Made by a program: the position numbers and the translations under genes
In this document: piece by piece, positions 5,610 through 25,882 of the stretch
Layout: each line of letters begins with the position of its first letter
Numbering within the stretch: position 1 is the stretch's first letter
Source: Halorhodospira halophila SL1
GTDB taxonomy: Bacteria; Pseudomonadota; Gammaproteobacteria; Nitrococcales; Halorhodospiraceae
Direction of reading: 5' to 3'
DNA: 32,000 bases
Assembly (NCBI RefSeq): GCF_000015585.1
Contig: NC_008789.1
Coordinates: 690,001-722,000, forward strand
Notes under the pieces: generated by a model
Told to the model about the DNA's origin: nothing
The model's database searches: none
What the model saw: only the letters and a program-made list of their open reading frames with translations

Positions 5610-5926
5610 TTCGACGAACTCGAAGATCCGCTGGACTTCGCGTCGGTCTCCCGAGCGAACCAGGCCGCGGCTTTTGACAGAATCTCCCGCTCTTCGCGCA
5701 GCCGCTTATTCTCGGCTCGCAGCCGCTTGAGCTCCTCGTTTTGCTCGCTGGTCGGACCGTCCGTGCGCTTGCCAGCGTCGCGGTCTGCCTGGGCGACCCC
5801 GTTGGTGATGGTCTGAGCGGTCGGCTCAAACTCCTGAGCTAGTTCCGAAGGCGTGCGCCCTGAGCGGACAAGATCAATCATCTGCTGGCGAAACGCCTGC
5901 GTGTAAGGCGGTCGGGTTCTGGGCAT
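5606..5926 (-). CDS. IS3-family OrfA
   Basis: HTH (TPSELAQEFEPTAQTITN) plus a coiled coil (EELKRLRAENKRLREE). Overlaps the orfB start. Confidence 0.8.
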   Translation of the reverse strand: MPRTRPPYTQAFRQQMIDLVRSGRTPSELAQEFEPTAQTITNGVAQADRDAGKRTDGPTSEQNEELKRLRAENKRLREEREILSKAAAWFARETDAKSSGSSSSSK

Positions 5927-5983
5927 CGTGGAAACCTCCTTTTACCAAAGCATCAAGGTCTCCACGGAAGCGGATCAACTCCA

Positions 5984-6726
5984 CAATCCCTTTTCCAACA
6001 GGGCTAGGTTCGGACGTACCAGTGGCTCAGTGCTCGAACGCTGCTCGGTGTCTTAATCCCTTTTCCAACAGGGCTAGGTTCGGACCCGGCATGAACGGCA
6101 AGGGAACCCAAAGTACCGCCGTCTTAATCCCTTTTCCAACAGGGCTAGGTTCGGACCCATGCTTGTCAGTCAACCCAGCCTTACCGAAGCCGTCTTAATC
6201 CCTTTTCCAACAGGGCTAGGTTCGGACGTACCAGTGGCTCAGTGCTCGAACGCTGCTCGGTGTCTTAATCCCTTTTCCAACAGGGCTAGGTTCGGACCCG
6301 GCATGAACGGCAAGGGAACCCAAAGTACCGCCGTCTTAATCCCTTTTCCAACAGGGCTAGGTTCGGACCCATGCTTGTCAGTCAACCCAGCCTTACCGAA
6401 GCCGTCTTAATCCCTTTTCCAACAGGGCTAGGTTCGGACTCGTGGACCTCGGGCGGCCGAGCGATCCCACTTTGTCTTAATCCCTTTTCCAACAGGGCTA
6501 GGTTCGGACTTGGTGGGAGCATGGAGGTCGGTGTCGATGGCCACTTCGTCTTAATCCCTTTTCCAACAGGGCTAGGTTCGGACCAAAACACGGTGAGCAT
6601 GTTGGTCATCCGTCAGGTGTCTTAATCCCTTTTCCAACAGGGCTAGGTTCGGACAGAGTTTGTTCGCCTACCCTACGACCCGGAGACCTAGTCTTAATCC
6701 CTTTTCCAACAGGGCTAGGTTCGGAC
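5984..6726 (-). CRISPR. CRISPR array 1: 11 repeats (trailer-most truncated by IS), 10 spacers of 34-38 nt
   Basis: 36-nt repeat, plus-strand gtcttaatcccttttccaacagggctaggttcggac. The transcribed sense is inferred as GTCCGAACCTAGCCCTGTTGGAAAAGGGATTAAGAC, giving the 8-nt tag ATTAAGAC. Repeats start at 5984 (partial), 6050, 6121, 6192, 6262, 6333, 6404, 6474, 6548, 6619 and 6691. Confidence 0.97.
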
Positions 6727-6949
6727 TCCTCGGCCCCATAAAGCCTTTCTGATCATGGGGTTACGAAGGGGGTTACCGCAAATCGCGGGACCCGCGGAGT
6801 TATGAGCACCTCTCATCCGCACCTTATTCCTATTTGACAAAGAGCCCGCTCCATTGGCGCAACATCTGATCATATAACAGCAGCTAAAGCATACGCCAGG
6901 GGCGGCAAGCTTGCTGTGCCCGGCTTCCAGCATCGGGGTCTGGGCAAAG
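6727..6949 (-). promoter_or_regulatory. CRISPR leader of array 1
   Basis: Lower-GC region abutting the last repeat. It shares conserved blocks with 25238-25400 and, in reverse complement, with 21440-21565. Confidence 0.65.
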
Positions 6950-7186
6950 TCAGCGATGGTGTTCGCCTTCCTCAAAGCAGGCGAAATACGCCTCGATTAA
7001 GCGGATTGGGGGCAACCTCAGCGCCTTGGCTAATTCCGCGATCGTATAGACCGTAGGATTCGCTCGGCAGCGGCAGAGGTCATAGAGCCACTGGCGACTA
7101 ACTCCAGCCCGGCGAGCGACCTCGGACAGGGAGCGCCCCTGGGCGCGGGCCTGCTTGCGGATCAGCAGCTCAAACTCCGTGCACAT
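6950..7186 (-). CDS. Small XRE/Cro-type HTH protein between cas1 and the leader
   Basis: 78 aa. HTH reads RSLSEVARRAGVSRQWLYDL. Its start is 1 nt after the cas1 stop. A paralog lies at 25471-25707. Confidence 0.8.
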   Translation of the reverse strand: MCTEFELLIRKQARAQGRSLSEVARRAGVSRQWLYDLCRCRANPTVYTIAELAKALRLPPIRLIEAYFACFEEGEHHR

Positions 7187-7187
7187 G

Positions 7188-8150
7188 CTACGCCTCGGGA
7201 ATAGTTTGGGCGCCGTGGTGGGCGCACTCGGCGGCTAGGGCCTGAGCGGCGCGGCGCTGCCAGCGTCGATGGAGCCCGGCATGGCGTTCCCAGCAGCCGA
7301 AGAAGGTCTGCCGTGCAGCCTTGCCTAGTCGTACGCCCTCGGTGCTGTTGGTGAAGTCCGTGCGCTGGAGCGTCTCGCTCGCGAATAGCTCCCAGGTCAG
7401 CCGCTCCACCCGGGCCCGGGCGATCTCCGTGAGATCGCAGGCCAAGGAGTCTCGCCCCCAGGCAGGCTCGTGCAGTACGCCGATGGCCGGATCGAGGCCG
7501 GCAGCGGTGACGGCCCGCAGTGCATCGCCGTGCGCGAGGGTGTAGCCGAGCGAGAGGACGGCGTTGACGGGATCCCGGGGTGGCCGGCGATTTCGCCCGG
7601 AGAAGCCTAGCGCTTCGGCGAAGAGAGCGCCGTAGCCGCGGAAGAAGGCCGCCGCGGCCGTACCCTCCTGCCCCCGCAGTTGCTCACCGGCGGGCGCCTC
7701 GCGGCGCACGGTCGCCTGGGCCGCCTCGATCTCGCGGTGGGCAGCCGTGAGCGGCTGGCGTTGATCAGGACGCCGGTATAGCGCACTCGCGAGGAGCCGC
7801 TGCTGCCCGGCCAGACGCAGTCGCACGAGGCGGCGCGCCCAGGCCTGGCGCTCAGCCTCGAGGTGGATGAGCCTGTACTGGCCGAGGCGGCGGACGGCAT
7901 CGCCATGGCCCTCGCTGCGGAGGAAGGCGCTGCGCCGCTGTCCACGGCTCGGCATGAAGACCAGGCTGACGCCGCTCTCGGCGAGAGTAGTGAGCACGCC
8001 GCTGCTCAGCTCGACCTGGCCAATGACGATCAGTCGGTCGATGAGGCTCAGCGGCACCGAGCGGGGCTGGGCCTCCGGTTCCCGAATGGTGAGCGCCTTG
8101 TGCGCGAGCTCCAGGCGCGTCCGGCGCCGGTCGATGTAGAGGGTGCCCAC
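7188..8150 (-). CDS. cas1: CRISPR integrase Cas1
   Basis: Starts (GTG)GTLYIDRR. Contains RNRRPPRDPVNAVLSLGYTL and GVLHEPAWGRDSLACDLTE, which are typical Cas1 motifs. Confidence 0.92.
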   Translation of the reverse strand: MGTLYIDRRRTRLELAHKALTIREPEAQPRSVPLSLIDRLIVIGQVELSSGVLTTLAESGVSLVFMPSRGQRRSAFLRSEGHGDAVRRLGQYRLIHLEAERQAWARRLVRLRLAGQQRLLASALYRRPDQRQPLTAAHREIEAAQATVRREAPAGEQLRGQEGTAAAAFFRGYGALFAEALGFSGRNRRPPRDPVNAVLSLGYTLAHGDALRAVTAAGLDPAIGVLHEPAWGRDSLACDLTEIARARVERLTWELFASETLQRTDFTNSTEGVRLGKAARQTFFGCWERHAGLHRRWQRRAAQALAAECAHHGAQTIPEA

Positions 8151-8260
8151 TTCCTTACTCCCTTTTGGCTGGAGGCTTGGACATCAGATTGGCACAGGGG
8201 CGCCAGCGTGGCGGGCACGGCAATCTTGCGGCGCGTGGCCGGGCGCCGGCTGCCACGGCG

Positions 8261-8575
8261 CTAGTCGGCCTCCGGGAATTGCGGTCTCAGGCTTAACCCC
8301 GGCAACACCAGGCCTGGCGGCAGGGGCGCCGGACCCTGGTAGGTGCCCTCCCCTTGAGGCTGCAAGGCGTAGATCCGCACGTCGTCGACGCGCTCGTCGA
8401 TCTCGCGGCGCAGAGCCTCGGCGAGCTGATGCCGGGCGCTCGGGACGAGGCGGCAGTAGAAAACGCTGTACTGCAGCGGCACGCCCCATTCCTTCATCAG
8501 CCGATGGACACGGCGCAGGCGGGCCGGCTTGCGGATGTCATAACAGACCAGGTGATCGATGGCGCGCTCACCCAT
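8261..8575 (-). CDS. cas2: Cas2
   Basis: Reads MGERAIDHLVCYDIRKPARLRRVHRLMKEWGVPLQYSVFYCRL. The ATG at 8575 overlaps the upstream ORF's stop by 8 nt. Confidence 0.85.
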   Translation of the reverse strand: MGERAIDHLVCYDIRKPARLRRVHRLMKEWGVPLQYSVFYCRLVPSARHQLAEALRREIDERVDDVRIYALQPQGEGTYQGPAPLPPGLVLPGLSLRPQFPEAD

Positions 8576-9365
8576 GGGCGGGCTCCTCCCGGCGCATGCG
8601 CTGCCAGCTGACGTAGTATTCCTCCGTGAGCGCCTGCAGGTGCCGATGAAGCTGGCTGGGCACGGGGCGCGCGAGCTGGAGCTCAAGGAACTCGACACGC
8701 CGGCGCTCAGTAAGCTCTGGGGGCTGATGGCGTCGCCACCGGACGAAGCGCAAGAGCAGGGGGATATAGAGGCAACGGCGCAGCTCGCCTTCTAGGTCTT
8801 CACCTTGGGCGGCGAGCGCGCGGCAGGCAGGTCGCCAGCCGCTGCGGTGCAGCTCCGCCTGTAGCCAGCTTTGCAACCCCCCGCCGAGCGCCGCGATCTC
8901 GTGCGGGATCCAGCGCAGCGGGCTGAGCTTGCGCAGGTAGTCCTCAAGCCGTCGGCAGGCGCTCTGGAAATCGCCGCGGGGACCGCGCCGGAAGACAAGG
9001 CTCCAGGCGTGGCGGCGCTGGGCGTCTCGCCACCAGTGGTAGGGGACGAGCCCGGTCTGTGTCTCAATCAGCGAGGTCAGCTCCTGGACGGGCCGATTCT
9101 GCGGCTCCTGGGCCGGCTGCAGGCAGGCCGTGGGCTGGCCGTGGCCGTCCTGAAAGTGGACGACAGCACCCGCCTCGACCAGGGCGAGGCAAGCCTGGAG
9201 GAGCCCCTCGCCGGCGCTGCCGCGCACGACGGCACGGCTAACCCGGGCGAGCGGGACGTACTCCGCGGCCTTGCCGGGGCGGCACAGGCGCAGCGCCGAG
9301 CCCTCGTACCGGACCTGGATCCGCTCGGCGTTGAGGTAGAGGGTACGCGGCTCGAGGCGGGGCAT
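8568..9365 (-). CDS. Short divergent Cas1-like protein (265 aa), catalytic motifs not evident
   Basis: The N-terminus parallels the Cas1 beta-domain: TLYLNAERIQV...VPLARVSRAVVRGSAGEGLLQACLALVEAGAVVHF vs Cas1 TLYIDRR...VPLSLIDRLIVIGQVELSSGVLTTLAESGVSLVF. The C-terminal half is helical but lacks the RNR..P.D..N..LS.GY and G..H motifs. An agggagg RBS is present. Confidence 0.55.
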   Translation of the reverse strand: MPRLEPRTLYLNAERIQVRYEGSALRLCRPGKAAEYVPLARVSRAVVRGSAGEGLLQACLALVEAGAVVHFQDGHGQPTACLQPAQEPQNRPVQELTSLIETQTGLVPYHWWRDAQRRHAWSLVFRRGPRGDFQSACRRLEDYLRKLSPLRWIPHEIAALGGGLQSWLQAELHRSGWRPACRALAAQGEDLEGELRRCLYIPLLLRFVRWRRHQPPELTERRRVEFLELQLARPVPSQLHRHLQALTEEYYVSWQRMRREEPAHG

Positions 9366-9378: not shown

Positions 9379-9660
9379 TTAGCCGAAGTAGAAGAAGTCT
9401 GGATCGGCGGGCACCTCGGCAGCGCCGAGGGTGACCAGGGGGCGGCGCGGCTCCAGCGGCAGGAGCGCGAACTGGTCCTCAGTGGGGTCGATGACCTGCG
9501 CCATTTCCGTGTGCAGCGCCTTGTGCTCGGCGGGGGTCAGCCAGCACTCATAGGCCGACTTCTGGCCGCCGCTGGCGTATCCCTTGATGACCCTTACGGC
9601 GCGGGATAGCCGGCGTGGGCAGCGAACATCGTAGGCGGCGAGGTAGAGTTTGCGGCGCAT
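9379..9660 (-). CDS. cas2: Second Cas2
   Basis: Reads MRRKLYLAAYDVRCPRRLSRAVRVIKGYASGGQKSAYECWLTPAEHKAL, the Cas2 ferredoxin-fold pattern. Confidence 0.8.
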   Translation of the reverse strand: MRRKLYLAAYDVRCPRRLSRAVRVIKGYASGGQKSAYECWLTPAEHKALHTEMAQVIDPTEDQFALLPLEPRRPLVTLGAAEVPADPDFFYFG

Positions 9661-9884: not shown

Positions 9885-11042
9885 TCAGCAGGGCTCCACG
9901 TGCGCCTTCCACTCCCGGACGATATCCCGCAGCCGGGGCAGCTCATCCGGGCCAATGAGTCGGATCCGATGCTGCCGGGCGCGCTCTCGCATAATATCCG
10001 TCGGCTGCCGGGCGCTGACCATCCAACTGGTACCGAAGAAGCCGCGCAGGTTATCGCCGATGCTGTCCAGCTTGTAGAGTTGCTGGTCATCGGCGGCTTC
10101 GTTGCCGTGGCGCAGGGTCTTGCACTCCACCACCAACAGACGATTGACATGGATGGCAACCACATCTAGTTCGTTGCGGGCCTTGTCGGTACCTTCCCAG
10201 GTGCCTTCCACCCCCATGGCCACATCGTCGAGCCCCTCATCCCGGAGCCGGTGGTAGACATACTCCTCCAGCCAGCCGCCGTTGAGAAAGCGAGTCCGCT
10301 CCTCGTCGAGGAAGGTCACCTCGGCACCACCCTCCCAGTCCAGCAAGCCCTGGTCGCGGAGCCAGCCCAGATTATTGGCCCAGCGGCCGTACGGTGGGTC
10401 ATCGAAGGCCTGGTCACGCGCGACCAGCCGCCCCTCCCTGTCCAGAGACCGGGAAGCGACCGCATTCAGCGCACCCAGGAAATCGCCATGGTCCCTGGCG
10501 ACCTCCGCTAGCCTCTTGGCCACCTGCTTGCGCTCGCCAGCCTCACGCTGCCAGTCCTCGTCCGCGGAGGCAGCACGGTGGTAGCGAAACCCCTGGGCGC
10601 GCAGGCTGATTGGCACGTCAAGCACCGAGGTCTGTGGCGTCGGCGCCTCGGCCCGTTCATTCCCCTCCGGCAAGTGCTCCAACCGGCCATGGGCGGTATC
10701 GGTGTAGATCCGGCGGTGTACACTATCCCGCAGCATCTCGAGAAACCCCAGAGCCATGAGCTTGTTGCCGCCCGTCAGATTGAGGACCACCTCGTCCGCC
10801 GCCGGCAACTCTTCCAAGATCCCCAGGGCGAATTCGTGCAACTGGGGCAGGTCGGCATCCGGGGCATTCTCGAAGGTCTGAACCGCAATACCGGCCTCTT
10901 CTTCCAGCTTGCGGAGCAACTGAGCCTGCCCGGCCATGGCCGGCGTAACAATGAGAGCCGCATGCTCCGGGCGCTCCATGAGCGCGGGTATCAGATTGCC
11001 GGCAAGCTGGGCAGACACCAGCTGGATGTGGAGTCGGGTCAT
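9885..11042 (-). CDS. can2: CARF + PD-(D/E)xK nuclease effector (Can2/Card1 type)
   Basis: N-terminal CARF with NLTGGNKLMA. C-terminal ELDVVAIHVNRLLVVECKT gives the D...ExK motif. An aaggag RBS lies before ATG 11042. Confidence 0.8.
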   Translation of the reverse strand: MTRLHIQLVSAQLAGNLIPALMERPEHAALIVTPAMAGQAQLLRKLEEEAGIAVQTFENAPDADLPQLHEFALGILEELPAADEVVLNLTGGNKLMALGFLEMLRDSVHRRIYTDTAHGRLEHLPEGNERAEAPTPQTSVLDVPISLRAQGFRYHRAASADEDWQREAGERKQVAKRLAEVARDHGDFLGALNAVASRSLDREGRLVARDQAFDDPPYGRWANNLGWLRDQGLLDWEGGAEVTFLDEERTRFLNGGWLEEYVYHRLRDEGLDDVAMGVEGTWEGTDKARNELDVVAIHVNRLLVVECKTLRHGNEAADDQQLYKLDSIGDNLRGFFGTSWMVSARQPTDIMRERARQHRIRLIGPDELPRLRDIVREWKAHVEPC

Positions 11043-11071
11043 GGGATTGGTCTCCTTCGAGTGATAGGGCA

Positions 11072-11383
11072 TCAGTTGCCCGGTTCCACTTCGCCCAGGC
11101 TCTCTACACGGTAGGCCTCGAGACGGGCGCCAGCGGCCTCCATGTCGTCGGCGGTTAGTTCTTGGCCGCGCAACTGCGGTGGGAGATCCAGCGACAGATG
11201 GAGATACCGCCCACCACGCTCGCATACAGCGGCCGCAAGATGCACGGGGAGCGTTCCGATCACCCTATCCCCAACCTCCAGCTCGGCCGGATTTAGATGA
11301 TCCACCTGCCGATCAACCGCCAGGCCCCGGCGCTGGGCCCATTCCACAGCCCCCGAGTGACGGGTCACGAACCAAGTCGTCAT
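11072..11383 (-). CDS. csx16: Csx16 (VVA1548-family CRISPR-associated protein), copy a
   Basis: 103 aa. Reads MTTWFVTRHSGAVEWAQRRG...GDRVIGTLPVHLAA...YLHLSLDLPPQLRGQELTADDM. About 55-60 percent identical to the copy at 23008-23310. Confidence 0.7.
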   Translation of the reverse strand: MTTWFVTRHSGAVEWAQRRGLAVDRQVDHLNPAELEVGDRVIGTLPVHLAAAVCERGGRYLHLSLDLPPQLRGQELTADDMEAAGARLEAYRVESLGEVEPGN

Positions 11384-11615
11384 GGTGGTGCTGTCTCCTT
11401 TTCCTTACCTTCCTTTGGGTCAGCCGGCCTCTTTACCTCGTTGGCAGCCGCCTCAGGGTGCCCGTCACGGTAGACCCTTTTCGGCGCCAGAGAGCGGCTT
11501 GCAAGCTTACGACCACCAGCTCCTCTGGCCCTGCAAACTTGCGGTTTGTAAGGTCAACCATGACACTAAGCTAGCCTTGCGGAGGATCGCTCGAAACGCA
11601 CACGGAGTGCTGCTC

Positions 11616-12749
11616 ATGACCGCCGACACCGACGCGCCTCATACCCTCCTCTGCGTCACCGGGCTGACGCCACAGGTGGTCACCGAGACGCTCTACGCCC
11701 TCGCGCAGGAGGGGGCACACGCCCTTCCGGATCGCATCGAGGTCATCACCACGACCGAGGGCCGGCGCCGCCTGGCGTTGACCCTGCTCGCCGAGCACGG
11801 CGGCCACGGCTACCTGGACCGACTTTGCGCCGACTACGGTATCGACCGCGGCGCCCTCGCCTTCGACGTGGACAGTATCCACGTTGTCGGCGGCGCCGAC
11901 GACGAGCCCCTCGCCGATATCGTCACTGAGGCGGACAACGCCGCGGCCGCCGACCGGATCCACGAGCGCATCCGCACCCTGACCGAGCAGCCCGGGCGGC
12001 TGCACGTCTCCCTCGCCGGGGGACGCAAGACCATGGGCTTCTACGCCGGTTACTCGCTCTCGCTCTACGGCCGGGGGCACGACCGGCTCAGCCACGTGCT
12101 GGTCAATCCGCCCTTCGAGTCGCACCCGGACTTCTTCTACCCACCACCGACGCCGGCAACCCTCCAGCTACCCGGGCGCAACGACATCATCAGCACCGCC
12201 GAGGCCGAGGTGCGTCTCGCCGAACTGCCTTTCGTCCGGCTGCGCGAGGAGCTCGGCGAGGAGCTGCCGCATCAGGGGCTATCCTTCAGCGAGGCGGTCG
12301 AGCGCGCCCAGCAGGTACTGATCCCGCCCCAATTGACCATCGATCTTACTGAGCGCACCGTCACGCTCCAGGGGCAGCCGATCACCCTCTCGGCAACCCA
12401 CTTCCTCTGGCTGACCTGGCTGGCCGACCGCGCTCGGCAAGAGGCCCCAGCGATCGCCTTCGACGAGGCCGCGGTTGATGAACTGACGGGCTACGCCGAC
12501 TGGCTTGAAGGTCGCCTCTCACAGCTGCATGAGAGCCTGGCCTCGGCGCGCAAGGAGATCGAGCGAGAAGGCCGCTCGAACTACTTCGAGCGCACCCGCT
12601 CGCGACTCAACAAGGCCATCGCCGAGCGCAGCGGCCTGCCCACCCGGGCGGCAGCGCGCTACCAGATCCACACCCACAGCAGCCGGCCCCAGACCACCTA
12701 CGGCCTGAAGCTCGAGCCGGAGCAGATTCGTATCGAGGGGGAGCCGTGA
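11616..12749 (+). CDS. CARF-domain protein, Cas_NE0113-like, with uncharacterised C-terminal domain
   Basis: Reads LLCVTGLTPQVVTETLYAL...HVSLAGGRKTMGFYAGY...HVLVNPPFE. The C-terminal 150 aa or so are helical with no recognisable nuclease motif. A ggag RBS lies before ATG 11616. Confidence 0.7.
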   Translation: MTADTDAPHTLLCVTGLTPQVVTETLYALAQEGAHALPDRIEVITTTEGRRRLALTLLAEHGGHGYLDRLCADYGIDRGALAFDVDSIHVVGGADDEPLADIVTEADNAAAADRIHERIRTLTEQPGRLHVSLAGGRKTMGFYAGYSLSLYGRGHDRLSHVLVNPPFESHPDFFYPPPTPATLQLPGRNDIISTAEAEVRLAELPFVRLREELGEELPHQGLSFSEAVERAQQVLIPPQLTIDLTERTVTLQGQPITLSATHFLWLTWLADRARQEAPAIAFDEAAVDELTGYADWLEGRLSQLHESLASARKEIEREGRSNYFERTRSRLNKAIAERSGLPTRAAARYQIHTHSSRPQTTYGLKLEPEQIRIEGEP

Positions 12750-12826
12750 GCCGGCAAGCTTGCAGGCATGCTGACCACGTTGATCGCCGGGCGATACTGC
12801 GGCCACGCAAGAGAGCGAAGAGCACC

Positions 12827-13816
12827 ATGGAGCAACGACACCTGACCCTGGAGCTGCTGACCCCGACCTTTCTCGGGGATGCTCAGCAGACCGCCGCCTG
12901 GCGGACGCCGCCAATCAAGGCGCAGCTGCGCCGCTGGTGGCGGGTCGCCGCGTTCGCGCAGGGGATGCGCCTACCCGAGCTACGCGCCCTGGAAGGACGG
13001 CTTTTCGGCGACGCCGCCGGGCAGCAGGGCCGCAAGAGCCAGGTTCGGCTGCGCCTACAGCCGCATAAGGGACGGCCGGGCACGCAGCACAACAACGCGT
13101 GGCGCCAGCAAGCCAATCAACAGCCGTTACGGATGAATAACGGCTTGCCGGCCGATGGCTACCTCGGTTTCGGCCGGGTCAAGACCAAAGGTGCTAACGA
13201 GACCGCCCTGCCACCCGAGGAGAAGGCCGAGCTGCGCCTGGCCTGGCCGGCGGAAGCCGAGGGCGCCGAGGCCCTCGACGAGGCCCTCGGGCTCTTCCAT
13301 CGGCTCGGCAGCCTCGGAGGACGCAGCCGCAACGGCTGGGGCGCCTGCCACCTGCACGGCGCCGAGGCCATTGGCCTGGACGCCTACAGCCGTCCCTGGG
13401 AAGAGGCCTTGGAAGAGGCCTGGATCCACGCCCTCGGCAGGGATGGAAACGGCCTGCTGCTGTGGTGGACCCCGCCGTGCAAGAGCTGGGAGGCCGCCAT
13501 GCGACGGCTCGGCGACCTGCGCAAGGGCCTGTGCGGCGAGGCGGGGGCGCTGCGGCCGCTGCTCTCCTGGCCGGTCACAGGCCAGCAGCAGCAGGGTCTC
13601 GACAACCAGAACCGGATCCCCAACACCCTGCAGCTTAAGGTTGTCCGGGACGAGCAGGGGCAGCTGCGGGGACAACTCGCGCACCTCCCCTGCCGACCCG
13701 AGCCGAAGATCTGGGATGCGCTACCCAAGGAGGTGCGCGACGACCATCCTGCGCTCTGGCGCAACGCCCACGCCTTCCTCGACCGGCACAGCGATCTCGA
13801 GCGGGTGCACGCATGA
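12827..13816 (+). CDS. cmr1: Cmr1 (RAMP)
   Basis: Reads LTLELLTPTFLGDA...PPIKAQLRRWWR. G-rich loop is GSLGGRSRNGWG. First gene of a cmr operon with overlapping stops and starts. Confidence 0.85.
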   Translation: MEQRHLTLELLTPTFLGDAQQTAAWRTPPIKAQLRRWWRVAAFAQGMRLPELRALEGRLFGDAAGQQGRKSQVRLRLQPHKGRPGTQHNNAWRQQANQQPLRMNNGLPADGYLGFGRVKTKGANETALPPEEKAELRLAWPAEAEGAEALDEALGLFHRLGSLGGRSRNGWGACHLHGAEAIGLDAYSRPWEEALEEAWIHALGRDGNGLLLWWTPPCKSWEAAMRRLGDLRKGLCGEAGALRPLLSWPVTGQQQQGLDNQNRIPNTLQLKVVRDEQGQLRGQLAHLPCRPEPKIWDALPKEVRDDHPALWRNAHAFLDRHSDLERVHA

Positions 13817-16746
13817 CGGAGGCAACCCTCATGGACATTGATCTGGCCCGGAACAAGCTGCTCGCCCGACTGCACGACCCGGCGGAGAAGGCGCTGGTCC
13901 TGCTGCGCGATCCCGCCGGCCACGAGGGGGGCACCGTGCGCACCCTCATCGAGGAGATCCTCGGCGAGGTGCCGCAGGCGGCCTGGGCGCCCGTGCGCAA
14001 GGCCGACCGCTGGGCCTCGGCGGCGGACCGGCCGCAATTCCCCCGTGAGCGCGACGGCGATCGCTTCGCGCGCTGGAGCCAGGTGCGCTTCGCCGAGCAG
14101 CCGGTGCTGCGCCATCCGCTCACCGGCGAGAAGATCGATCTCGGCGAGCACGGCAAGCTGCGGGAGATCGAGCTCGACACGCTCAAGGCCGGCAGCCTCG
14201 AGCATTTCCGGCACCTGATCCATCGTGACGAGGCGGGGAGCGTCGATTCCTGGCGGACCCTGCTCGCGCTGTGGCGCTTCGGCCCCGAGCCGGCAACGAG
14301 CGGCGATGCGACCGGGCTCGGCGAGCTGTGGCGCTATCTGCCGGCGGATACCCGCATCCCGGACCACACCATCTGGCAGCACCTGGACCTGAGCTCCGCG
14401 CTCACCGGCGCCTTCGCGGGCGATGGCCAGGGCCGCTGCGCCCTGCTCAACGTCACCCTCGGCCCGGTGCAGGAGCTGATCGCCGCCGCCCGGACGACCT
14501 CGGACCTATGGGCCGGCTCGCACCTGCTCGCCCGGCTCGCCTGGGAGGCGATGCGCGTCGTCTGCGAGCGCCTCGGCCCCGACGCCGTGCTCTTCCCGCA
14601 GCTGCGCGGCGTCCCGCAGGTCGACCTCTGGCTCCTCGAGCAGGGGCTGGCGCCGGAGCTCTTCGCGAAGGAGCCCTGGAACGAGCGCACCGTCACCGAC
14701 GCCAACCCGCTGTTCAGCGCCGCCCTGCCCAACCGCTTCCTCGCCGTGGTCCCGGCGGATCAGGCGGAGGCGATCGGCCGCGCCATCGAGGCGCACCTGC
14801 ACGAGTGGGTCGCCGAGACCGCCGAGGGCGTGGTCAGCGATCTGCTCAGGGCCGTCAACCTGCACACCGATCCGACAACACCCGCCTATCAGCAGGCACG
14901 GGAGCAGCTGGCCGGATTCCCTGAGGTCTACTGGTCGGCCGTGGGCTGGGACGAGATCGCCACGGACGCCAACGGCGAGCCCGAGGCGGACCGCCTCGCC
15001 GAGGCCCTGCGCCCCTTCTATGAGCCGCAGGCCGAGGCCCCCGGCTTCCTCAGCTCCGAGGCCTGGCGCGTACTACAGCGGCCCATCGAGGTCATCGATC
15101 CGGAAGCGGGGACGCCGGCGACCTTCTACCGGCCCAATCCCGGCGTGCTCTACCCCGCGCTCTACGAGCTCAGCGAGCGAGTGATGGGCGGCGTCAAGGC
15201 GACCCGCCCCTTCGCCGCGCAGCACGAGGGCGGCTATCGCTGCTCGCTGACCGGCGAGGTGGAGTGGCTGACCCACGATCGCAGCCACCTCGACCTGCCG
15301 CCGGGCCAGCGGGAAGGGCACGACACCCTCTGGAGCCTCGTTGCCAAGCGCCACCCGAGCTGGGCGCGCAAGGGTGAGCACCTCGGGGCGCTGGCCGCCC
15401 TCAAGCGGCTCTGGCCGCAGCGCTTCTGCCGCGAACTCGCCGGGACCCTCGGGCAGGAGCAGACGCCGCGCTTCGTCGTCTCCACGCACACCATGGCGCT
15501 GGCCACCTCCCTGGCCCGCGCTGCCGAGGAGCCGAATCCCGCCGGCGGGCTCAGCGCCGAGCAGGCCGAGGCGATCCGCAACGCCGATCGGGTTGCGCTA
15601 CCGCGGCGGCTGGCGCAGCGGCTACACCACCTCGAGCACGGTGAGCTCCTCGCCCGGTTGCCCGGCTGGGTCGAGCAGCAGCGCGAATCCGACGACGGCG
15701 ATGAGACCGCCGCCCGGCAGGCGATCCGCAAGGTCACCGGCACCGAGGCCGAGGCCTACTACGCCCTGCTGCTCATGGACGGCGACCGCATGGGGGCCTG
15801 GCTCTCCGGCGGCGACGGGACGACCATCCCCTACCGGGCGGCCTTCCACCCCGACCTGGCGGACGCAGTGGACACACGCTTCGGCGACCATACGGTCCTG
15901 CAGGCGTACCTCGACACGCCGCGGGCGGTCTCACCGGCCCGGCACCTGGCCATCTCCGGGGCGCTGAACGACTTCTCCACCACCCTCGCCCGCAGGGTGG
16001 TCGAGGAGTGTCACCACGGCCGCGTCCTCTATGCCGGCGGCGACGACCTCATGGCCATGCTGCCCACTGGCGATCTGCTCAGCGCCATGCGCGAGCTGCG
16101 CGACGCTTACTCGGGCACGGCTACCAGCGGTGAGGCCGAGGAAGAGGACGCCTGGTGCCGCAACGGCTTCATCTATCGGCAGGACCGGCTGTACCTGACC
16201 ATGGGGTCGCAGGCCACCGCCTCGATGGGGGCGGTGATCGCCCACCATAAGACCCCTCTGACCGCGGCCCTCGCTGAACTGCGCCAGGCCGAGCAGCGGG
16301 CCAAGAACGAGGGCGGGCGCGACGCCTTCGCCCTGTCCGTTCTCAAGCGCAGCGGCGGCGCCCTGCGCCACGTCGGCCGCTGGGCACCAGCAGCGGGTAT
16401 CGACGAGATGAGCGCCCTGCGCGACTTCGCCGAGGCGCTCCATGCCAACCCCGAGGCCTCCCGGCGCGCCGCCTACAACGTCGCGGGCTGGCTCGCCGAT
16501 CTCCCCGAGCCCGACACCCTCCCCCCGGAGGACGGCGTCGCCGGCTACCTCGAGGCGGTGCTGCACTACCAATTCTGCCGCCAGGGCCTCGAGCAGCAGG
16601 GGCAGCCCATCCACGCGCGGCGGCTCGGATCGCTCGCCAGCGTCTCGCCAACCGGCGACGAGCTGAGCAGCGCCGCCAAGATCCGCGACCGTCTCAGCCA
16701 CCTCGTCGGCGTGGCCGAGTTCCTCGCCCGCGAGACCCGGAGGTAG
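13813..16746 (+). CDS. cas10: Cas10/Cmr2 large subunit
   Basis: 977 aa. N-terminal LHDPAEKAL. Contains YYALLLMDGDRMGAWL and the cyclase motif LYAGGDDLMAML. ATGA overlap with cmr1. Confidence 0.92.
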   Translation: MTEATLMDIDLARNKLLARLHDPAEKALVLLRDPAGHEGGTVRTLIEEILGEVPQAAWAPVRKADRWASAADRPQFPRERDGDRFARWSQVRFAEQPVLRHPLTGEKIDLGEHGKLREIELDTLKAGSLEHFRHLIHRDEAGSVDSWRTLLALWRFGPEPATSGDATGLGELWRYLPADTRIPDHTIWQHLDLSSALTGAFAGDGQGRCALLNVTLGPVQELIAAARTTSDLWAGSHLLARLAWEAMRVVCERLGPDAVLFPQLRGVPQVDLWLLEQGLAPELFAKEPWNERTVTDANPLFSAALPNRFLAVVPADQAEAIGRAIEAHLHEWVAETAEGVVSDLLRAVNLHTDPTTPAYQQAREQLAGFPEVYWSAVGWDEIATDANGEPEADRLAEALRPFYEPQAEAPGFLSSEAWRVLQRPIEVIDPEAGTPATFYRPNPGVLYPALYELSERVMGGVKATRPFAAQHEGGYRCSLTGEVEWLTHDRSHLDLPPGQREGHDTLWSLVAKRHPSWARKGEHLGALAALKRLWPQRFCRELAGTLGQEQTPRFVVSTHTMALATSLARAAEEPNPAGGLSAEQAEAIRNADRVALPRRLAQRLHHLEHGELLARLPGWVEQQRESDDGDETAARQAIRKVTGTEAEAYYALLLMDGDRMGAWLSGGDGTTIPYRAAFHPDLADAVDTRFGDHTVLQAYLDTPRAVSPARHLAISGALNDFSTTLARRVVEECHHGRVLYAGGDDLMAMLPTGDLLSAMRELRDAYSGTATSGEAEEEDAWCRNGFIYRQDRLYLTMGSQATASMGAVIAHHKTPLTAALAELRQAEQRAKNEGGRDAFALSVLKRSGGALRHVGRWAPAAGIDEMSALRDFAEALHANPEASRRAAYNVAGWLADLPEPDTLPPEDGVAGYLEAVLHYQFCRQGLEQQGQPIHARRLGSLASVSPTGDELSSAAKIRDRLSHLVGVAEFLARETRR

Positions 16747-16749
16747 CCC

Positions 16750-17901
16750 ATGGCCGAGTACCGCTACATCGAGCCCCAGGACGTCCTCTTCTTCCGCGGC
16801 AACCGCCTCTTTGGCGAGCCCGGCAACGCCGGCGCCGCCCTCATGCCGCCCTGGCCCTCGGTCTTCGCCGGGGCCCTGCGCAGCGCCATGCTCAGCGCCG
16901 CCGGCGCGGACCCGGCGCAGCTGCGCAGCGGCGAGCTGCCTGCCCCGCTCGACACGGTGCTCGGCACCCCCGAGGAGCCGGGGACCTTCACCCTCACCGG
17001 CGTGACGCTGGCTCGCCGGCAGTCGTCCGGCACCGCCGAGCCCCTCCACCCCCTGCCGGCGGACCTGAGCGTCGAGCGTGATGAGGCCACAGGCGAGTGC
17101 GCGGTCCATCGCCTGACGCCGCAGCCACTGCCCGCCGGCGTCGCCAGCAGCCAACCCCTGGAGCGCCTGCCGGTGCTCCGGCGCAGCGACCGCGGTAAGC
17201 CGGCCGCCGGCTACTGGCTCACCCATAGCGGCTGGCAGCGCTACTGCCAGGGCGAGCCCCCACCGGCTGAGGCCCTCGTTCACCGCTCGGCGATCTGGAG
17301 CAGCGACCCGCGCCTGGGCATTGCCCTGAAGCCCGAGCAGCGCACGGCGGCCGAGAGCCAGCTCTACACCACCGAGGGCATCCGGCTGTGCGAGGGATAC
17401 GGCTTTCTCGCCGCCATCGCCGGCTCCGACCCGACCAGCCTGCCTAAGCAGGCAACCCTGCGCCTCGGCGGCGACGGCCGCGGCGCGTTCATGAGCGCCG
17501 TCGCAGCCCCGGTCGAAACCTCGCCGGAGCCGGCCGCCATCGAGGCAGAGGGCCGCCTACGGATCGTACTCACCACGCCCGGCATCTTCCCGGGGGGGTG
17601 GCAACTCCCCGGGCTCGACGCCAATGGCCTCTGGCACTATCCCGGCGGCCGGGCGCGGCTGGTCGCCGCTGCTGTGCCCCGCGGCCAGGTCATCAGCGGC
17701 TGGGATCTGGCTCACCACCGGCCCAAACCCGCCCAACGTGCGGCCCCAGCCGGGACCGTCTACTGGCTCGAGGCGCTTGAGGGCGGGCTCAAGCCGCTTC
17801 GCAAGCTTGCCGAATCCGGTCTCTGGGGCATGACCCCGGAGAATGAAGACCCAGCACGGCGAGCCGAGGGCTTCAACCGCTTCGCCATCGCCAACGCCTG
17901 A
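16750..17901 (+). CDS. cmr3: Cmr3
   Basis: Reads YRYIEPQDVLFFRGNRLFG...PPWPSVFAGALRSA. Its position after cas10 also fits. Confidence 0.85.
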   Translation: MAEYRYIEPQDVLFFRGNRLFGEPGNAGAALMPPWPSVFAGALRSAMLSAAGADPAQLRSGELPAPLDTVLGTPEEPGTFTLTGVTLARRQSSGTAEPLHPLPADLSVERDEATGECAVHRLTPQPLPAGVASSQPLERLPVLRRSDRGKPAAGYWLTHSGWQRYCQGEPPPAEALVHRSAIWSSDPRLGIALKPEQRTAAESQLYTTEGIRLCEGYGFLAAIAGSDPTSLPKQATLRLGGDGRGAFMSAVAAPVETSPEPAAIEAEGRLRIVLTTPGIFPGGWQLPGLDANGLWHYPGGRARLVAAAVPRGQVISGWDLAHHRPKPAQRAAPAGTVYWLEALEGGLKPLRKLAESGLWGMTPENEDPARRAEGFNRFAIANA

Positions 17902-17915
17902 AGGGATCGCAGACC

Positions 17916-18830
17916 ATGTTCGAGAAGAACGCCGCCCTATTCCTCTACAGCGTCAGCCCCGTCCACATGGGGGCTGGCACCGCGACCGGGGTGATCGACA
18001 ACCCCATCCAGCGCGAGGTGCACACGCAACACCCGAGCTTCGCCGGCTCCGGGCTCAAGGGCGCCATCCGCCACGGCTTCAAGGCCCTTGGCGGCAACCC
18101 CGACCAGGCCGATCAGCTCTTCGGCCCCCGCCAGGGCGATCTCCACGCCGGCGCCGTGAGCCTCGGGGACGCACAGCTCGTCGCCCTGCCGGTGCGCACC
18201 CGCCGGGAAGGCTACGCCTACGCCACCTCGCCATTGGCCCTCGCCCGGCTGCAGCGGCTGCTCCACCAGGCCGGCCTCCAGCCCGAGTGGACAGTGCCCA
18301 CGCTGCCCCAGGGCGAGGCGGCTCGCGCGCCGGCGGCCGTCACGCCCGAGGGGCTCGAGGCCCTCACCGCCGACGGCGGCCGGCTCCACTTGGAGGTCTT
18401 CGAGCTCGCCGCACAGGCCGAACCCGGCGTAGCCGCCATCGGGCAGTGGCTCGCCGAGCACGCCCTCAGCAAGGACCACGGCGAGTACTTCCGGAACAAG
18501 CTCGCGCGGGACCTAGTGATCCTCCCGGAGACCGAGCTCAACTACTTCAGCCGCAACGCCATGGTGGTCGAGCCCCACGTGCGCATCGATCCGAAAACCG
18601 GCACCGCCGATGGCAGTGGGCTGTTTTATACCGAGAACCTGCCGCCGGAGAGCCTGCTCGCCGCGCCGGTGATGGCCAGCGGCGACCGCAGCGGTGAGCG
18701 GGAGCTCGACAGTGCCGCTGTCATGGCGCAGCTCCATACCGCCCTCGACGGCAACACGCTGCAGATCGGCGGCGACGCCACCACCGGCCGGGGGCTGGTC
18801 ACGGCCCGACTCGTGGAGAAGGTATCATGA
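17916..18830 (+). CDS. cmr4: Cmr4 (backbone RAMP, target RNase subunit)
   Basis: Reads PVHMGAGTATGVIDNPIQREVHTQHPSFAGSGLKGAIRH. C-terminal G-rich loop is IGGDATTGRGLV. Confidence 0.9.
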   Translation: MFEKNAALFLYSVSPVHMGAGTATGVIDNPIQREVHTQHPSFAGSGLKGAIRHGFKALGGNPDQADQLFGPRQGDLHAGAVSLGDAQLVALPVRTRREGYAYATSPLALARLQRLLHQAGLQPEWTVPTLPQGEAARAPAAVTPEGLEALTADGGRLHLEVFELAAQAEPGVAAIGQWLAEHALSKDHGEYFRNKLARDLVILPETELNYFSRNAMVVEPHVRIDPKTGTADGSGLFYTENLPPESLLAAPVMASGDRSGERELDSAAVMAQLHTALDGNTLQIGGDATTGRGLVTARLVEKVS

Positions 18831-19216
18831 CAACGCCCATGACCCTCGAGCAGCAGCGCGCCGCCGATGCCTGGCAGGCTGCGGCGGCCTGCACGGACCC
18901 CTACGCCAAGCTCGCCAAGGGGGCGCCGGCGCTAATTATGAACAGCGGTCTGATGCAGACCCTGGCTTTCCTTGAAGACAAGGGCGAGGACCACCACCGA
19001 GCCCTCGCTCGACAGCTGCGGCGGTGGATTGTGCGGCAGCACCCGGAGCTGCTAAGCACCCGCGGCGATAGCGCGGACCCGGGCTATGAGGCAATCATGG
19101 AGGCGCTGCTCCACGCCGAGCCGCGCACCTTCCAGGCCGTGACCGCGGAGGCCCTCGCCTGGCTGCGCTGGGTCCGCCAGATCGCGCCCACTCGCGTCGA
19201 GGAGCGTTCGTCATGA
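18827..19216 (+). CDS. cmr5: Cmr5 (small subunit)
   Basis: 129 aa and helical. Reads APALIMNSGLMQTLAFLEDKG. Overlaps both neighbouring genes. Confidence 0.8.
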   Translation: MTTPMTLEQQRAADAWQAAAACTDPYAKLAKGAPALIMNSGLMQTLAFLEDKGEDHHRALARQLRRWIVRQHPELLSTRGDSADPGYEAIMEALLHAEPRTFQAVTAEALAWLRWVRQIAPTRVEERSS

Positions 19217-20424
19217 GCCGCGCCGCCGTTCCCGCCTACCTCGGTGAGGACTTCCGGGAGGCCGCTCCGGGCCACCGCTTTGCGCTCTATCTCAGCGTCT
19301 GGGATCAGCAATGGAAGAAGCAGCGGGGCGGTGCGATCGAGGAGCTGCTGAAGCTGAACGACGACGATCGGAAGCGGCTGGGCGCTTTGATCGAGCGCCA
19401 ACGCCGGCTACTCCAGCATGAGGAGAGCGCACAACCAGGGAGCACCCTGAACCTGCCGGCCACGAGCACGAGCCCCTTCACAACAGGGCTCGGCATGGCC
19501 CACCCGCTGGAGAACGGCTTCGCTTTTCTCACCCCCTACGGCCTGCCTTACCTCGCGGGAAGCGGCGTCAAGGGTGTCCTGCGCCAGGCGGCGCGGGAGC
19601 TCGCCGAGGGGGGTGAGTTCGAGGATCCCGGGCGCGATTGGGACTGGCCCGAGATCGAGGCACTTTTCGGGAGCCCCGGCGAGGACGAAGGCGGCGTGAC
19701 AGGCCGGCGCCGAGGCGCCCTAAACTTCTGGGACGTCTTCCCCGAACCAGGGCGAGGGCAAGACCTGGCCTGGGAGGTCATGACACCCCATCAGGGCAGC
19801 TACTACCAGGACGCTACCGGCCAAACCGCACCGCACGATAACGGCGCGCCCGTGCCGATCTACTTCCTCGGTATCCCGGCCGGCAGCGGTTTCCGCTTTC
19901 ATATCCAGTGCAATCGGGCCCTGTTACGGCAGACGGGACCGACACTGCTTGAGCCAGCGGGCGAGGACGGCGATCGAGCACGCTGGCAGGTTCTGCTCGA
20001 AACCCTCTTCGCGCACGCCTTCGAGTGGCTCGGCTTCGGCGCCAAGACGGCGGTCGGCTACGGCGCGCTGTCCATCGACGAGAAGACCCGGCGGCACGAG
20101 GCCGAGGCGCGCGAAAAGATCCGGGCCGAACAGGCACGCAAGGAACAGCTTGCGAGCTTGCCGCCCGGGCAGCGTCGCGCGGAAGAGCTGCTTGAGCAGC
20201 GCCAAGACCCCAGCTATCCGGCGCACCGCTTCTTGCTCGAACAGCTCGAAGCCGGTGCAGTAGCCGCCGAGGAGCAAGCGGCCCTGGCGCAGGTTGCGCT
20301 CGACTACCTCGCGCAAGACCGTGAAAAGGTTCGTAAGACGAAGAAAGCCAAGCAGAAGCTGCCGAAACTGGACGAGGAAGAGGTGCAACTTCAGCGCTTC
20401 GTCGACGAGGAAGGCACAGGGTGA
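19213..20424 (+). CDS. cmr6: Cmr6 (RAMP) with about 117-aa charged C-terminal extension
   Basis: Reads PYLAGSGVKGVLRQAAREL. G-rich loop is GFGAKTAVGYGAL. This is followed by a K/E/R/Q-rich helical tail. Confidence 0.85.
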   Translation: MSRAAVPAYLGEDFREAAPGHRFALYLSVWDQQWKKQRGGAIEELLKLNDDDRKRLGALIERQRRLLQHEESAQPGSTLNLPATSTSPFTTGLGMAHPLENGFAFLTPYGLPYLAGSGVKGVLRQAARELAEGGEFEDPGRDWDWPEIEALFGSPGEDEGGVTGRRRGALNFWDVFPEPGRGQDLAWEVMTPHQGSYYQDATGQTAPHDNGAPVPIYFLGIPAGSGFRFHIQCNRALLRQTGPTLLEPAGEDGDRARWQVLLETLFAHAFEWLGFGAKTAVGYGALSIDEKTRRHEAEAREKIRAEQARKEQLASLPPGQRRAEELLEQRQDPSYPAHRFLLEQLEAGAVAAEEQAALAQVALDYLAQDREKVRKTKKAKQKLPKLDEEEVQLQRFVDEEGTG

Positions 20425-24987: not shown

Positions 24988-25237
24988 GAACCTAACCCCT
25001 TTCCAACAGGGCTAGGTTCGGACAAGAAGAGGCTAAGGCCATCATCGAGGTCCTCGGCGAGTCTTAATCCCTTTTCCAACAGGGCTAGGTTCGGACGAGC
25101 TTGGCAAGGAGATCAAGGAGGAGGAGTCCCGTCTTAATCCCTTTTCCAACAGGGCTAGGTTCGGACAAGGGACACTCCGGAAAGAGTGGCCCCGTTGGGA
25201 GGTCTTAATCCCTTTTCCAACAGGGCTAGGTTCGGAC
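24988..25237 (-). CRISPR. CRISPR array 2: 4 repeats (trailer one degenerate), 3 spacers
   Basis: Same 36-nt repeat as array 1, at 25061, 25131 and 25202. A degenerate copy, gaacctaacccctttccaac..., lies at 24988-25023. Spacers are 37, 34 and 35 nt. Confidence 0.93.
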
Positions 25238-25470
25238 TCCTCGACTCTGTACGCCCTTTATTATCAGCGCGTTACAAAGGGTGTTAGCGAGAATCGCGGA
25301 ATCCTGCGAGTTATGATTGCCTCTCATCCGCACATTATTCTCATTTGTAAAATGATCGTGATCTGCCTACCTCACTGAGATTCTAAAGCAAATGGGCAGC
25401 CGTCAGCCAGGGGTGTACGCCCATGGCGGCTCAACTGCTCGCCCACGGCGCAAGGCCGCGGGCACGAAGC
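25238..25470 (-). promoter_or_regulatory. CRISPR leader of array 2
   Basis: Reads tcctcgactctg..gttacaaagggtgttagcgagaatcgcgg..gttatgattgcctctcatccgcacattattctcatttg. This parallels leader 1 block by block. Confidence 0.6.
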
Positions 25471-25707
25471 TCAGTCATCGCGCTCGCCTCGCTCGACGCA
25501 GGCGAAATACACCCTGATCAGGAGGAGCGGCCGCAACTCAAGCGCTTTAGCCAGATCCGCGATCGTGTAGATCGTTGGGTTGGCCCGACAGCGACAAAGG
25601 TCGTAGAGACTCTGGCGACTGATCCCTGCCCGGCGGGCCACTTCGGAGAGCGAGAGCCCACGGGCGCGGGCCTGCTTGCGGATGAGCAACTCAAGCGCCG
25701 TGGACAT
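25471..25707 (-). CDS. XRE/Cro-type HTH protein, paralog of 6950-7186
   Basis: 78 aa. MSTALELLIRKQARARGLSLSEVARRAGISRQSLYDLCRCRANPTIYTIADLAKAL is about 80 percent identical to the copy next to cas1. Confidence 0.75.
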   Translation of the reverse strand: MSTALELLIRKQARARGLSLSEVARRAGISRQSLYDLCRCRANPTIYTIADLAKALELRPLLLIRVYFACVERGERDD

Positions 25708-25882
25708 CGCCGTTCTCCGCAATCGCTGGCGTACCGAGATAGACGCACTCGGCTGCCAAGGCTTGAGCAGCACGGCGCTGCCAGCGCCGGTGCAAACCGG
25801 CATGTACCTCCCAGCGGCTGAAAAGCGCTTTATTCGCGACTTCCAACCTCGTCCCACGCCGGTCGATATAGAGCGTCCCCAC
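25691..25882 (-). pseudogene. cas1: cas1 remnant with large internal deletion
   Basis: (GTG)GTLYIDRRGTRLEVANKAL is joined directly to WEVHAGLHRRWQRRAAQALAAEC. These match Cas1 residues about 1-20 and about 283-305 of the intact copy, so roughly 260 codons are missing. Confidence 0.8.

Follow-up and report, generated by a model that had tools for sequence, protein, structure and literature searches.

A small XRE-type helix-turn-helix gene adjoining cas1 in Halorhodospira-type type III-B CRISPR-Cas loci

Small XRE controllers are typical of transferable elements, and the C genes among defence-locus regulators precede the gene that they time and have their C-boxes upstream of themselves. At the leaders of type I-E and type I-F systems it is IHF that acts, beside the Cas1-Cas2 integration site. 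To our knowledge, little is known about the control or the targeting of spacer acquisition in type III systems. The Xre proteins of the I-F3 Tn7-CRISPR-Cas elements autoregulate and repress either the CRISPR-array promoter or the tniQ-cas operon, and come as a 68-aa C.AhdI-like and a ~100-aa C.Csp231I-like type (bioRxiv 10.1101/2020.07.02.184150). For Csa3a of the type I-A system of Sulfolobus islandicus, activation of the adaptation genes, interaction with Cas1 and binding of a leader motif are reported (PMC4333418, PMC9456107).

We analyzed a 32,000-nt stretch of the Halorhodospira halophila SL1 genome (“the window”), in which a 78-aa helix-turn-helix (HTH) protein, HTH1, is encoded between cas1 and a CRISPR leader. 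Like the I-F3 Xre proteins, HTH1 is a small XRE-family protein encoded inside a CRISPR-Cas locus on what looks like a mobile element, and C.AhdI is its best structural match as well. In the CRISPR-associated transposons (CAST), however, the xre gene is flanked by tnsABC and tniQ-cas and has its binding sites ahead of it, whereas here a type III-B adaptation operon ends with the HTH gene, which is coupled to cas1. No Tn7 genes were found among the Pfam-annotated ORFs of the window, where the system is type III-B Cmr, and no specific sequence relationship to the I-F3 Xre proteins was detectable, the similarity being weak and of the generic XRE kind. With the C proteins (C.AhdI, 1Y7Y; C.BclI, 2B5A; C.Esp1396I, 3CLC) the HTH protein shares a size of ~75-80 aa, a five-helix XRE fold and a gene within a defence locus, and the structures match at Foldseek TM scores of 0.64-0.79 and 16-28% identity; unlike theirs, its gene comes last, overlapping or abutting cas1, its partner is an integrase as against a nuclease/methylase pair, and no private operator was identified for it. 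Csa3a is comparable as a DNA-binding factor encoded in the cas locus, but combines CARF and winged-HTH domains and is regulated by cyclic oligoadenylate, whereas the 78 aa of HTH1 make up a single XRE domain and leave no room for a sensor. A likeness to IHF would hold if the protein were an integration cofactor, that is, a DNA-binding factor at the leader by the Cas1-Cas2 integration site; IHF, unlike HTH1, is host-encoded outside the cas locus, bends DNA and has a different fold.

The gene beside cas1 and its fold

The minus strand carries, in order, a Card1-type CARF nuclease gene, cas2a, a diverged cas1, cas2b, cas1, HTH1, the leader and array 1, and a Cmr operon diverges from it. The features of this first locus are:

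5984..6726, minus strand: CRISPR array 1, with a 36-nt repeat present 11 times (minus-strand reading GTCCGAAC...GGGATTAAGAC)
6727..6949, minus strand: leader 1, 223 nt (leader alignment A4, motif positions)
6950..7186, minus strand: HTH1 (P0001), 78-aa XRE-type HTH protein (ORF and translation, Pfam, AF2)
7188..8150, minus strand: cas1, 320 aa, intact, stop 1 nt ahead of the HTH1 start (PF01867, E 1e-69)
8185..8231, minus strand: cis blocks A and B upstream of cas1, conserved across HTH-bearing loci
8261..~8575, minus strand: cas2b, ~104 aa, exact start uncertain (PF09827, E 1e-14 on ORF 8261-8698)
8568..9365, minus strand: diverged second Cas1-like gene, 265 aa (weak Pfam Cas1 N-terminal match; PADLOC)
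9379..9660, minus strand: cas2a, 93 aa (PF09827, E 6e-11)
9885-11225, minus strand: Card1-type CARF nuclease gene
11382-21335, plus strand: divergent type III-B Cmr operon

A single nucleotide separates the TAG stop of cas1 (7188-7190) from the ATG of HTH1 (7184-7186), with a GAGG Shine-Dalgarno sequence 7 nt upstream of the latter, and 223 nt lie between the end of HTH1 and the first repeat of array 1 (the leader-proximal 36-nt repeat, 6691-6726 in minus-strand reading). The preliminary description of the locus had placed a 78-aa HTH protein 1 nt past the cas1 stop and reaching the leader of array 1, and its coordinates agree with ours. Relatives of cas2b are 103-104 aa long, and the product of 8568-9365 matches the PADLOC model “Cas1, diverged variant, second in the loci” at E 4e-4.

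Direct repeats of at least 310 nt and 98% identity flank the CRISPR-Cas region (431-730 and 31363-31662) and begin in the 3′ half of tRNA-Lys (405-480), and ParA-, IstB- and DUF2857-type genes are found at 26482-31240. Because of these repeats and genes, the region looks like a ~31-kb integrated genomic island carrying the type III-B system; a transferable element fits both the tRNA-Lys repeats and the ParA/IstB-like genes. A 23-nt unit (AAGTGGGG.GC..TTCCACG.G) is repeated four to five times in tandem at 1413-1527, close to the left end of the island, which is rich in IS elements.

Membership of the XRE/Cro-C1 family is clear from both profile and fold. HTH1 scores above the Pfam cutoffs for HTH_31 (35.1 bits, cutoff 27) and HTH_3 (32.8 bits, cutoff 23), the second copy described below (P0004) scores 39.0 bits for HTH_3, and the AF2 model (pLDDT 91.9) is a five-helix bundle (residues 4-15, 20-26, 31-38, 46-56 and 60-76) with the helix 2-turn-helix 3 arrangement. 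The closest structures found by Foldseek were C.AhdI, DdrO, a mycobacterial XRE regulator, C.BclI, ClgR, SinR, C.Esp1396I and the N-terminal domain of CapH, aligned at 16-34% identity; nearly all of those listed have the XRE fold, and the nearest are transcriptional regulators, several of them of defence operons. C.AhdI, the top match, gave TMq 0.69, TMt 0.79 and an rmsd of 1.5 over 61 columns. A PDB sequence profile returned weak matches to a similar set of XRE regulators, and the PADLOC Control_protein models matched P0004 and P0007 only, weakly (E 1e-4 to 1e-3). Neither PADLOC-DB v2 nor NCBIfam holds a specific model that names the protein, the hits being weak and generic (capH, HTH_VI, mad1, RmrA, TrbA). 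The family is uncatalogued; a small HTH controller embedded in a defence locus is a known kind of element.

A few of the profile matches point away from CRISPR biology, toward an antitoxin-like or hitch-hiking XRE gene that was captured beside cas1 in one lineage and regulates something else or nothing, a reading that we consider very unlikely. Weak matches to dnstrm_HI1420/HigA antidotes favor it, PF21716 (dnstrm_HI1420, cutoff 27) reaching 29.7 bits for P0004 and 22.6 bits for P0001 and so passing the cutoff for HTH2 alone, but the NCBIfam antidote model TIGR02684 stays far under its cutoff (28-33 bits vs 53.7).

The second locus and selection on the gene

The arrangement recurs in the window, as the preliminary description had noted for 25471-25882, with a second HTH gene, a shortened cas1, a leader and a short array:

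~24988..25237, minus strand: CRISPR array 2, 4 repeats, trailer repeat degenerate
25238..25470, minus strand: leader 2, ~80% nt identity to leader 1 in the core (leader alignment A4)
25471..25707, minus strand: HTH2 (P0004), second copy, 78 aa (HTH_3, 39.0 bits; 74% aa identity to HTH1)
25691..25882, minus strand: cas1 remnant, 63-codon ORF left by an in-frame deletion of ~262 codons
25913..25960, minus strand: blocks A and B upstream of the cas1 remnant, with GCAATCTTGC at 25949-25958 on the plus strand

The repeat of array 2 is that of array 1. From the 3′ end of cas1 through the HTH gene the two loci run in parallel, always 18521 nt apart, and past a 10-nt indel they stay colinear into the leader at an offset of 18511 nt; the duplicated arrangement is far beyond chance. 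HTH1 and HTH2 share 58 of 78 residues (74%) and 76% of their nucleotides, somewhat less than the 80 percent or so estimated at first. The remnant of cas1 consists of 20 N-terminal codons (VGTLYIDRRGTRLEVANKAL) fused to ~43 C-terminal codons, retains the GTG start and its RBS, and stops 17 nt inside HTH2, which is the overlap that intact cas1 has with the HTH gene in another Halorhodospira sp. (L007, below). An earlier estimate of ~260 lost codons was right in size, but the “decay” that it was taken to represent came about in one in-frame deletion.

Direct repeats of 178 nt (21696-21873 and 25983-26160; 96% identity) flank a 4.3-kb segment with array 2, leader 2, HTH2 and the cas1 remnant, the right copy lying within a DUF192 ORF; this suggests that the second locus arrived or was rearranged through recombination.

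Comparison of the two copies allowed selection on the gene to be estimated. Between HTH1 and HTH2 dN/dS is 0.18 (dS 0.88); residues 1-60 alone give 0.10, and the C-terminal tail gives 0.80; the HTH copies against L007 gave 0.20-0.24, and cas1, for comparison, 0.17. The copies differ by 20 amino acid changes where 35.5 would be expected from 56 random substitutions, and 20 changes or fewer were seen in none of 20,000 simulations of 56 random substitutions each; the frame stayed open in just 13% of random-substitution trials. On the strength of the dN/dS values and these simulations, the HTH gene is a functional protein-coding gene under purifying selection, and the original assignment as an XRE-type HTH gene is upheld.

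That an intact HTH frame sits beside a shrunken cas1 had been offered as an argument for selection on the HTH itself. The argument does not carry. Against intact cas1, the surviving codons of the locus 2 copy show a dN/dS as low as 0.09 (40 C-terminal codons) and 0.11 (15 N-terminal codons), and therefore most of the divergence between loci 1 and 2 predates what was a single in-frame deletion; the open frame of HTH2 beside the deleted cas1 says little about selection after that event. In a three-way comparison, lineage-specific replacements in the HTH number 7 in copy 1, 4 in copy 2 and 9 in L007, and in the cas1 segments 1, 7 and 4, respectively. The 7 replacements in the remnant versus 4 in HTH2 (Fisher p = 0.053) give a weak hint of differential constraint on the two after the deletion.

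Linkage to cas1, distribution and origin

An HTH orthologue was found immediately 3′ of cas1 in all seven loci recovered, with an overlap of 4-17 nt or a 1-nt gap:

Window locus 1, H. halophila SL1: 100% identity to HTH1; 1-nt gap; followed by leader and array
Window locus 2, H. halophila SL1: 74% to HTH1; 17-nt overlap with the cas1 remnant; followed by leader and array
L007, Halorhodospira sp., GCA_022227985.1: 73% to HTH1 (68% in alignment A1); 17-nt overlap; leader, then contig end
L008 and L017, two contigs of the congener G029: 51% to HTH1; past the cas1 C-terminus; leader and array
L024, congener G030: 45% to HTH1; 14-nt overlap; 170-nt leader and array
L025, contig assembled from the public run SRR17886269: 57% to HTH1; 11-nt overlap; contig end
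L026, GCA_964562765.1: 51% to HTH1; 4-nt overlap; followed by an NE0113-family CARF gene

Whether homologues always adjoin cas1 or the leader had been named as the point to check. For the orthologues it holds with regard to cas1 (7/7 loci); because L026 has a CARF gene and no array after the HTH gene, the HTH-leader link is less constant than the HTH-cas1 link.

An exhaustive HMMER search of 1.84 billion cluster representatives returned seven proteins at E ≤ 1e-10, three of which are small single-domain proteins, all three adjoining cas1. No member of the subfamily was found at that threshold in 400 sampled genomes of the class, and no relatives in a JGI metagenome scan (alignment A6). Across 14 genomes of the family, the cas1 clade of the HTH loci is present in three (G000, G029 and G030), exactly those with the small HTH gene, and the remaining congeners have fused HTH paralogues only. 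By these searches, the HTH family is restricted to Halorhodospira-type type III-B loci in one genus and its near relatives.

Two further proteins of the same genome carry a paralogous HTH domain of 49-51% identity at their N-terminus:

L005:5215-7155 (genome 783214-785154): 646-aa HTH-PAS-GGDEF-EAL protein
L006:5649-6332 (genome 2043648-2044331): 227-aa protein with HTH and NBR1-type Ig-like domains

Both architectures are found repeatedly across the genus. Since the same domain occurs in fused host proteins, it seems that one lineage took a DNA-binding domain of the host into its cas locus; a tree of the cas-linked HTHs and fused paralogues (73 columns), with 10 of 19 inner branches open, is compatible with one origin of the cas-linked group and with several. 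On the question raised earlier of whether homologues are CRISPR-linked elsewhere, the answer is therefore divided: the standalone orthologues all follow cas1, but paralogous domains serve in non-CRISPR signalling proteins.

This last observation, together with the limitation of the family to one genus and near relatives, is what else could be said for a captured gene with no CRISPR-specific role. Against it, cas1 is invariably the gene upstream, leaving no toxin as a partner; position and coupling to cas1 have been kept across orthologues that are 45-57% identical, with purifying selection maintained; and the small HTH is missing in congeners without the HTH-linked cas1 clade.

Two standard contexts of small HTH genes were considered and rejected. 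A toxin-antitoxin pair does not fit the neighborhood, where no RelE/HigB-type toxin gene is found, cas1 lies upstream in 7/7 loci, and a leader or CARF gene lies downstream; nor does an anti-CRISPR-associated (Aca) gene, as the gene upstream is cas1 and there is no small acr-like ORF upstream.

Outside the clade, Cas1 relatives (at most 59% identity) are found in an Ectothiorhodospiraceae MAG, Arhodomonas, Steroidobacteraceae, methanotrophs, Acidobacteriota, Nitrospirota and others. In the eight such loci examined, the order is cas2a-cas1-diverged cas1-cas2b-array, as far as the fetched DNA shows, and an HTH of the cas1-linked family was present in none of 18 fetched relative loci (DNA around cas1, up to 4 kb per side where the contig allows). 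Halorhodospira-type loci differ by three linked traits: cas1 stands at the end, the HTH gene follows it, and the leader is long (150-230 nt).

These traits bring in the possibility that the protein is an integration cofactor, which would bind the leader and possibly Cas1, and guide the Cas1-Cas2 integrase to the leader-repeat junction, a task performed by IHF in type I-E and I-F systems and by Csa3a, with Cas1, at the leader of the Sulfolobus I-A system. We regard this as unlikely. Translational coupling to cas1 in every locus favors matched co-production, and a leader follows the HTH gene in 5/5 loci whose sequence past the gene can be read and holds no further gene there; the exception is L026, with its CARF gene in that place. 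HTH-bearing loci also have a long conserved leader (150-230 nt), and in the four HTH-less relatives checked the array begins 35-75 nt past cas2b (L027, L028 and L029, gaps read directly) or ~225 nt past the assumed position of cas2b (L039). A precedent exists in a cas-encoded DNA-binding factor that is reported to contact both Cas1 and a leader motif (PMC9456107). Against this, relatives with the same set of cas1, diverged cas1 and cas2 genes do without the HTH, an XRE fold is what one expects of a classical regulator that binds operators and not of a DNA-bending protein, and no Cas1-HTH fusion occurs among the best 128 matches of an all-length HMMER search. A complex prediction for Cas1 and HTH (alignments A5 and A1) returned “no answer” with a score of 0.01, which counts neither for nor against.

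Candidate DNA sites and the probable role of the protein

The repeat-proximal ~150 nt of the leader are conserved in all HTH-bearing loci (alignment A4), directly after the HTH stop in G029 and G030, and the distal part is variable. Upstream of cas1 lie blocks A and B. In locus 1, block A is the palindrome variant GCAAGATTGC (8220-8229) and block B is GCCAATCT, ~24 nt downstream on the coding strand; block B (GCCAAYCT) looks similar to a palindrome half. Window loci 1 and 2, G030 and G029 have kept both blocks, whereas in L007 block A is conserved and block B degenerate, and in L026 both are merely approximate. A conserved inverted repeat at 8185-8231 had been proposed as a target of the HTH protein; the conservation stands for HTH-bearing loci, but elements of the block A type also occur in loci that have no HTH gene.

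The same palindrome recurs elsewhere in the island. In the distal part of leader 1 it is present as GCAAGCTTGC (6905-6914), and a copy or near-copy lies 36-65 nt past the HTH stop in window locus 1, L007 and L026; the two window loci, L007, G030 and G029 each have a variant some 80 nt ahead of cas1. Exact GCAAGCTTGC has six copies in the 2.68-Mb genome, four of them within the 32-kb window, and GCAANNTTGC has 25 copies, seven of them in the window, mostly at intergenic or promoter positions; the two paralogous HTH-fusion genes have no GCAANNTTGC upstream. Such a distribution could be that of an island-wide regulon in which the HTH protein reads GCAAGCTTGC palindromes and so coordinates the adaptation genes, leader, cmr operon and CARF effector genes, a reading to which the enrichment in the island, the variant upstream of cas1 in all readable HTH-bearing lineages and the copies past the HTH stop would lend some weight. 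Even so, we find it quite improbable. The motif is missing from leader 2 and from the leaders of G029 and G030. Moreover, other families and phyla have the palindrome ~50-70 nt ahead of cas2a in five loci that lack the HTH (L027, L029, L035, L036 and L039), the sources being an Ectothiorhodospiraceae MAG, Steroidobacteraceae, Methyloglobulus, Acidobacteriota and Sphingomonadaceae (HTH absence judged from the fetched DNA around cas1, up to 4 kb per side where the contig allows); in L037 it lies near the NE0113 gene. In 113 kb of such loci there are five exact copies of GCAAGCTTGC against ~0.1 expected.

The palindrome is thus a widespread, conserved cis element of such type III-B loci across Proteobacteria, Acidobacteriota and Nitrospirota, and its place at the head of the adaptation operon in HTH-less loci makes it unlikely to be a private operator of the Halorhodospira HTH. 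The proposal that these sites are HTH targets keeps its observation, enrichment in the island (4/6 copies), and loses its exclusivity. A more widely shared component would be the more economical reader, and one candidate is the NE0113/CARF5 protein, whose C-terminal region is WYL-like and which has the motif next to it in the window, L026, L027 and L037; within the fetched flanks, NE0113 is present in the window and in 3/8 other palindrome-bearing loci (L026, L027 and L037).

Several details of these elements may be noted. The palindrome, GCAAG(N)TTGC, often extends to 12-14 bp (e.g., CGGCAAGCTTGCCG) and typically lies ~50-85 nt upstream of the first adaptation gene. Copies in the window are at 6905, 8220, 11533, 12754, 17801, 23464 and 25949, and elsewhere at L027:2765, L029:3640, L035:3665, L036:3666, L037:2988, L039:3644 and 3667, L024:5450 and 6966, and L026:3670. 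Along its entire length, the NE0113-family CARF protein of the window (11382-12749) is matched by two PADLOC models, “CARF5--CARF” at E 1e-113 and “WYL/Csx1, CARF+WYL C” at E 4e-71, which suggests a signal-sensing transcription factor rather than a nuclease. Positions 6770-6800 of the leader core hold a short GC-rich inverted repeat and then a T-rich run (CCGCGGGTCCCGCGATTT); the arms vary in a compensating manner (TCGGGCACCTCGA in G030, GGGATGCCC in G029), and the element could be a pre-crRNA leader hairpin or a protein site.

Two elements are candidate sites peculiar to the clade. One is block B; the other, at 6802-6816 of the leader core, is ATGAG-N5-CTCAT, which L007 shares with leader 1 in perfect form, while leader 2 has arms of 4 bp and G029 has ACAT-N8-ATGT instead. 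Both are drawn from few, closely related loci in which they are inseparable from shared ancestry, and among the candidate cis elements of the loci compared none could be assigned as the operator of the HTH. Scanning 6600-8400 found no sigma-70-like promoter in the leader or in the cas2b-cas1 spacer and a single terminator-like match, at chance level; Rfam gave nothing meaningful in 5800-8400.

To the reading that we prefer we give about an even chance: the HTH would be a locus-specific transcriptional controller, similar to the C proteins and Xre, of the cas1-HTH unit and/or the leader promoter. The gene of a small XRE-family protein, probably dimeric, would have joined the type III-B-associated adaptation operon at its end (cas2a, diverged cas1, cas2b, cas1, HTH), and the protein would be translated together with Cas1 through the stop-start overlap or 1-nt gap. 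Acting like an R-M controller protein or the Xre of Tn7-CRISPR-Cas, it would bind an operator in its own locus and set transcription of the cas1-HTH unit and/or of the CRISPR leader promoter directly downstream. The locus would in this way adjust its own uptake of spacers and supply of crRNA, with de-repression possible on entry of the island into a naive cell. The fold, purifying selection, invariable place after cas1 and narrow lineage are established; we infer DNA binding, dimerisation, the operator and the direction of regulation. The XRE fold, retained function, linkage to cas1, candidate cis elements, precedent of the I-F3 systems and mobile context bring this controller to roughly the halfway mark in our judgement. 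Weighing against it, the foremost operator candidate, the palindrome GCAAGNTTGC, also heads the adaptation operon in HTH-less loci; C genes and the CAST xre genes head the unit that they control and have their operators directly ahead of them, whereas the HTH gene comes last; and the scan gave no sigma-70-like promoter in the leader or in the cas2b-cas1 spacer. Furthermore, L026 has the HTH gene without an array downstream, and therefore control of the leader promoter cannot be universal.

A more speculative version of the cofactor proposal, which we hold to be rather improbable, is that the HTH is a dedicated, cas-encoded leader-recognition subunit of type III-B adaptation, made in step with Cas1 and tethering or orienting a Cas1-Cas2-diverged-Cas1 integrase at the long leader. 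If true, bacteria would have an equivalent of host IHF that is encoded in the locus itself, and there would be a possible reason for the move of cas1 next to the leader in the Halorhodospira clade.

The narrow distribution of the HTH family limits its general importance. What the locus offers is a DNA-binding gene recruited, apparently in one lineage, at the exact cas1/leader junction, and a compact, testable handle made up of one protein of 78 aa and two or three short conserved DNA blocks. As a leader-binding cofactor, the protein would found a new class among adaptation accessories; as a controller, it would add a type III case to the Xre/C-protein logic known from CRISPR-associated transposons.
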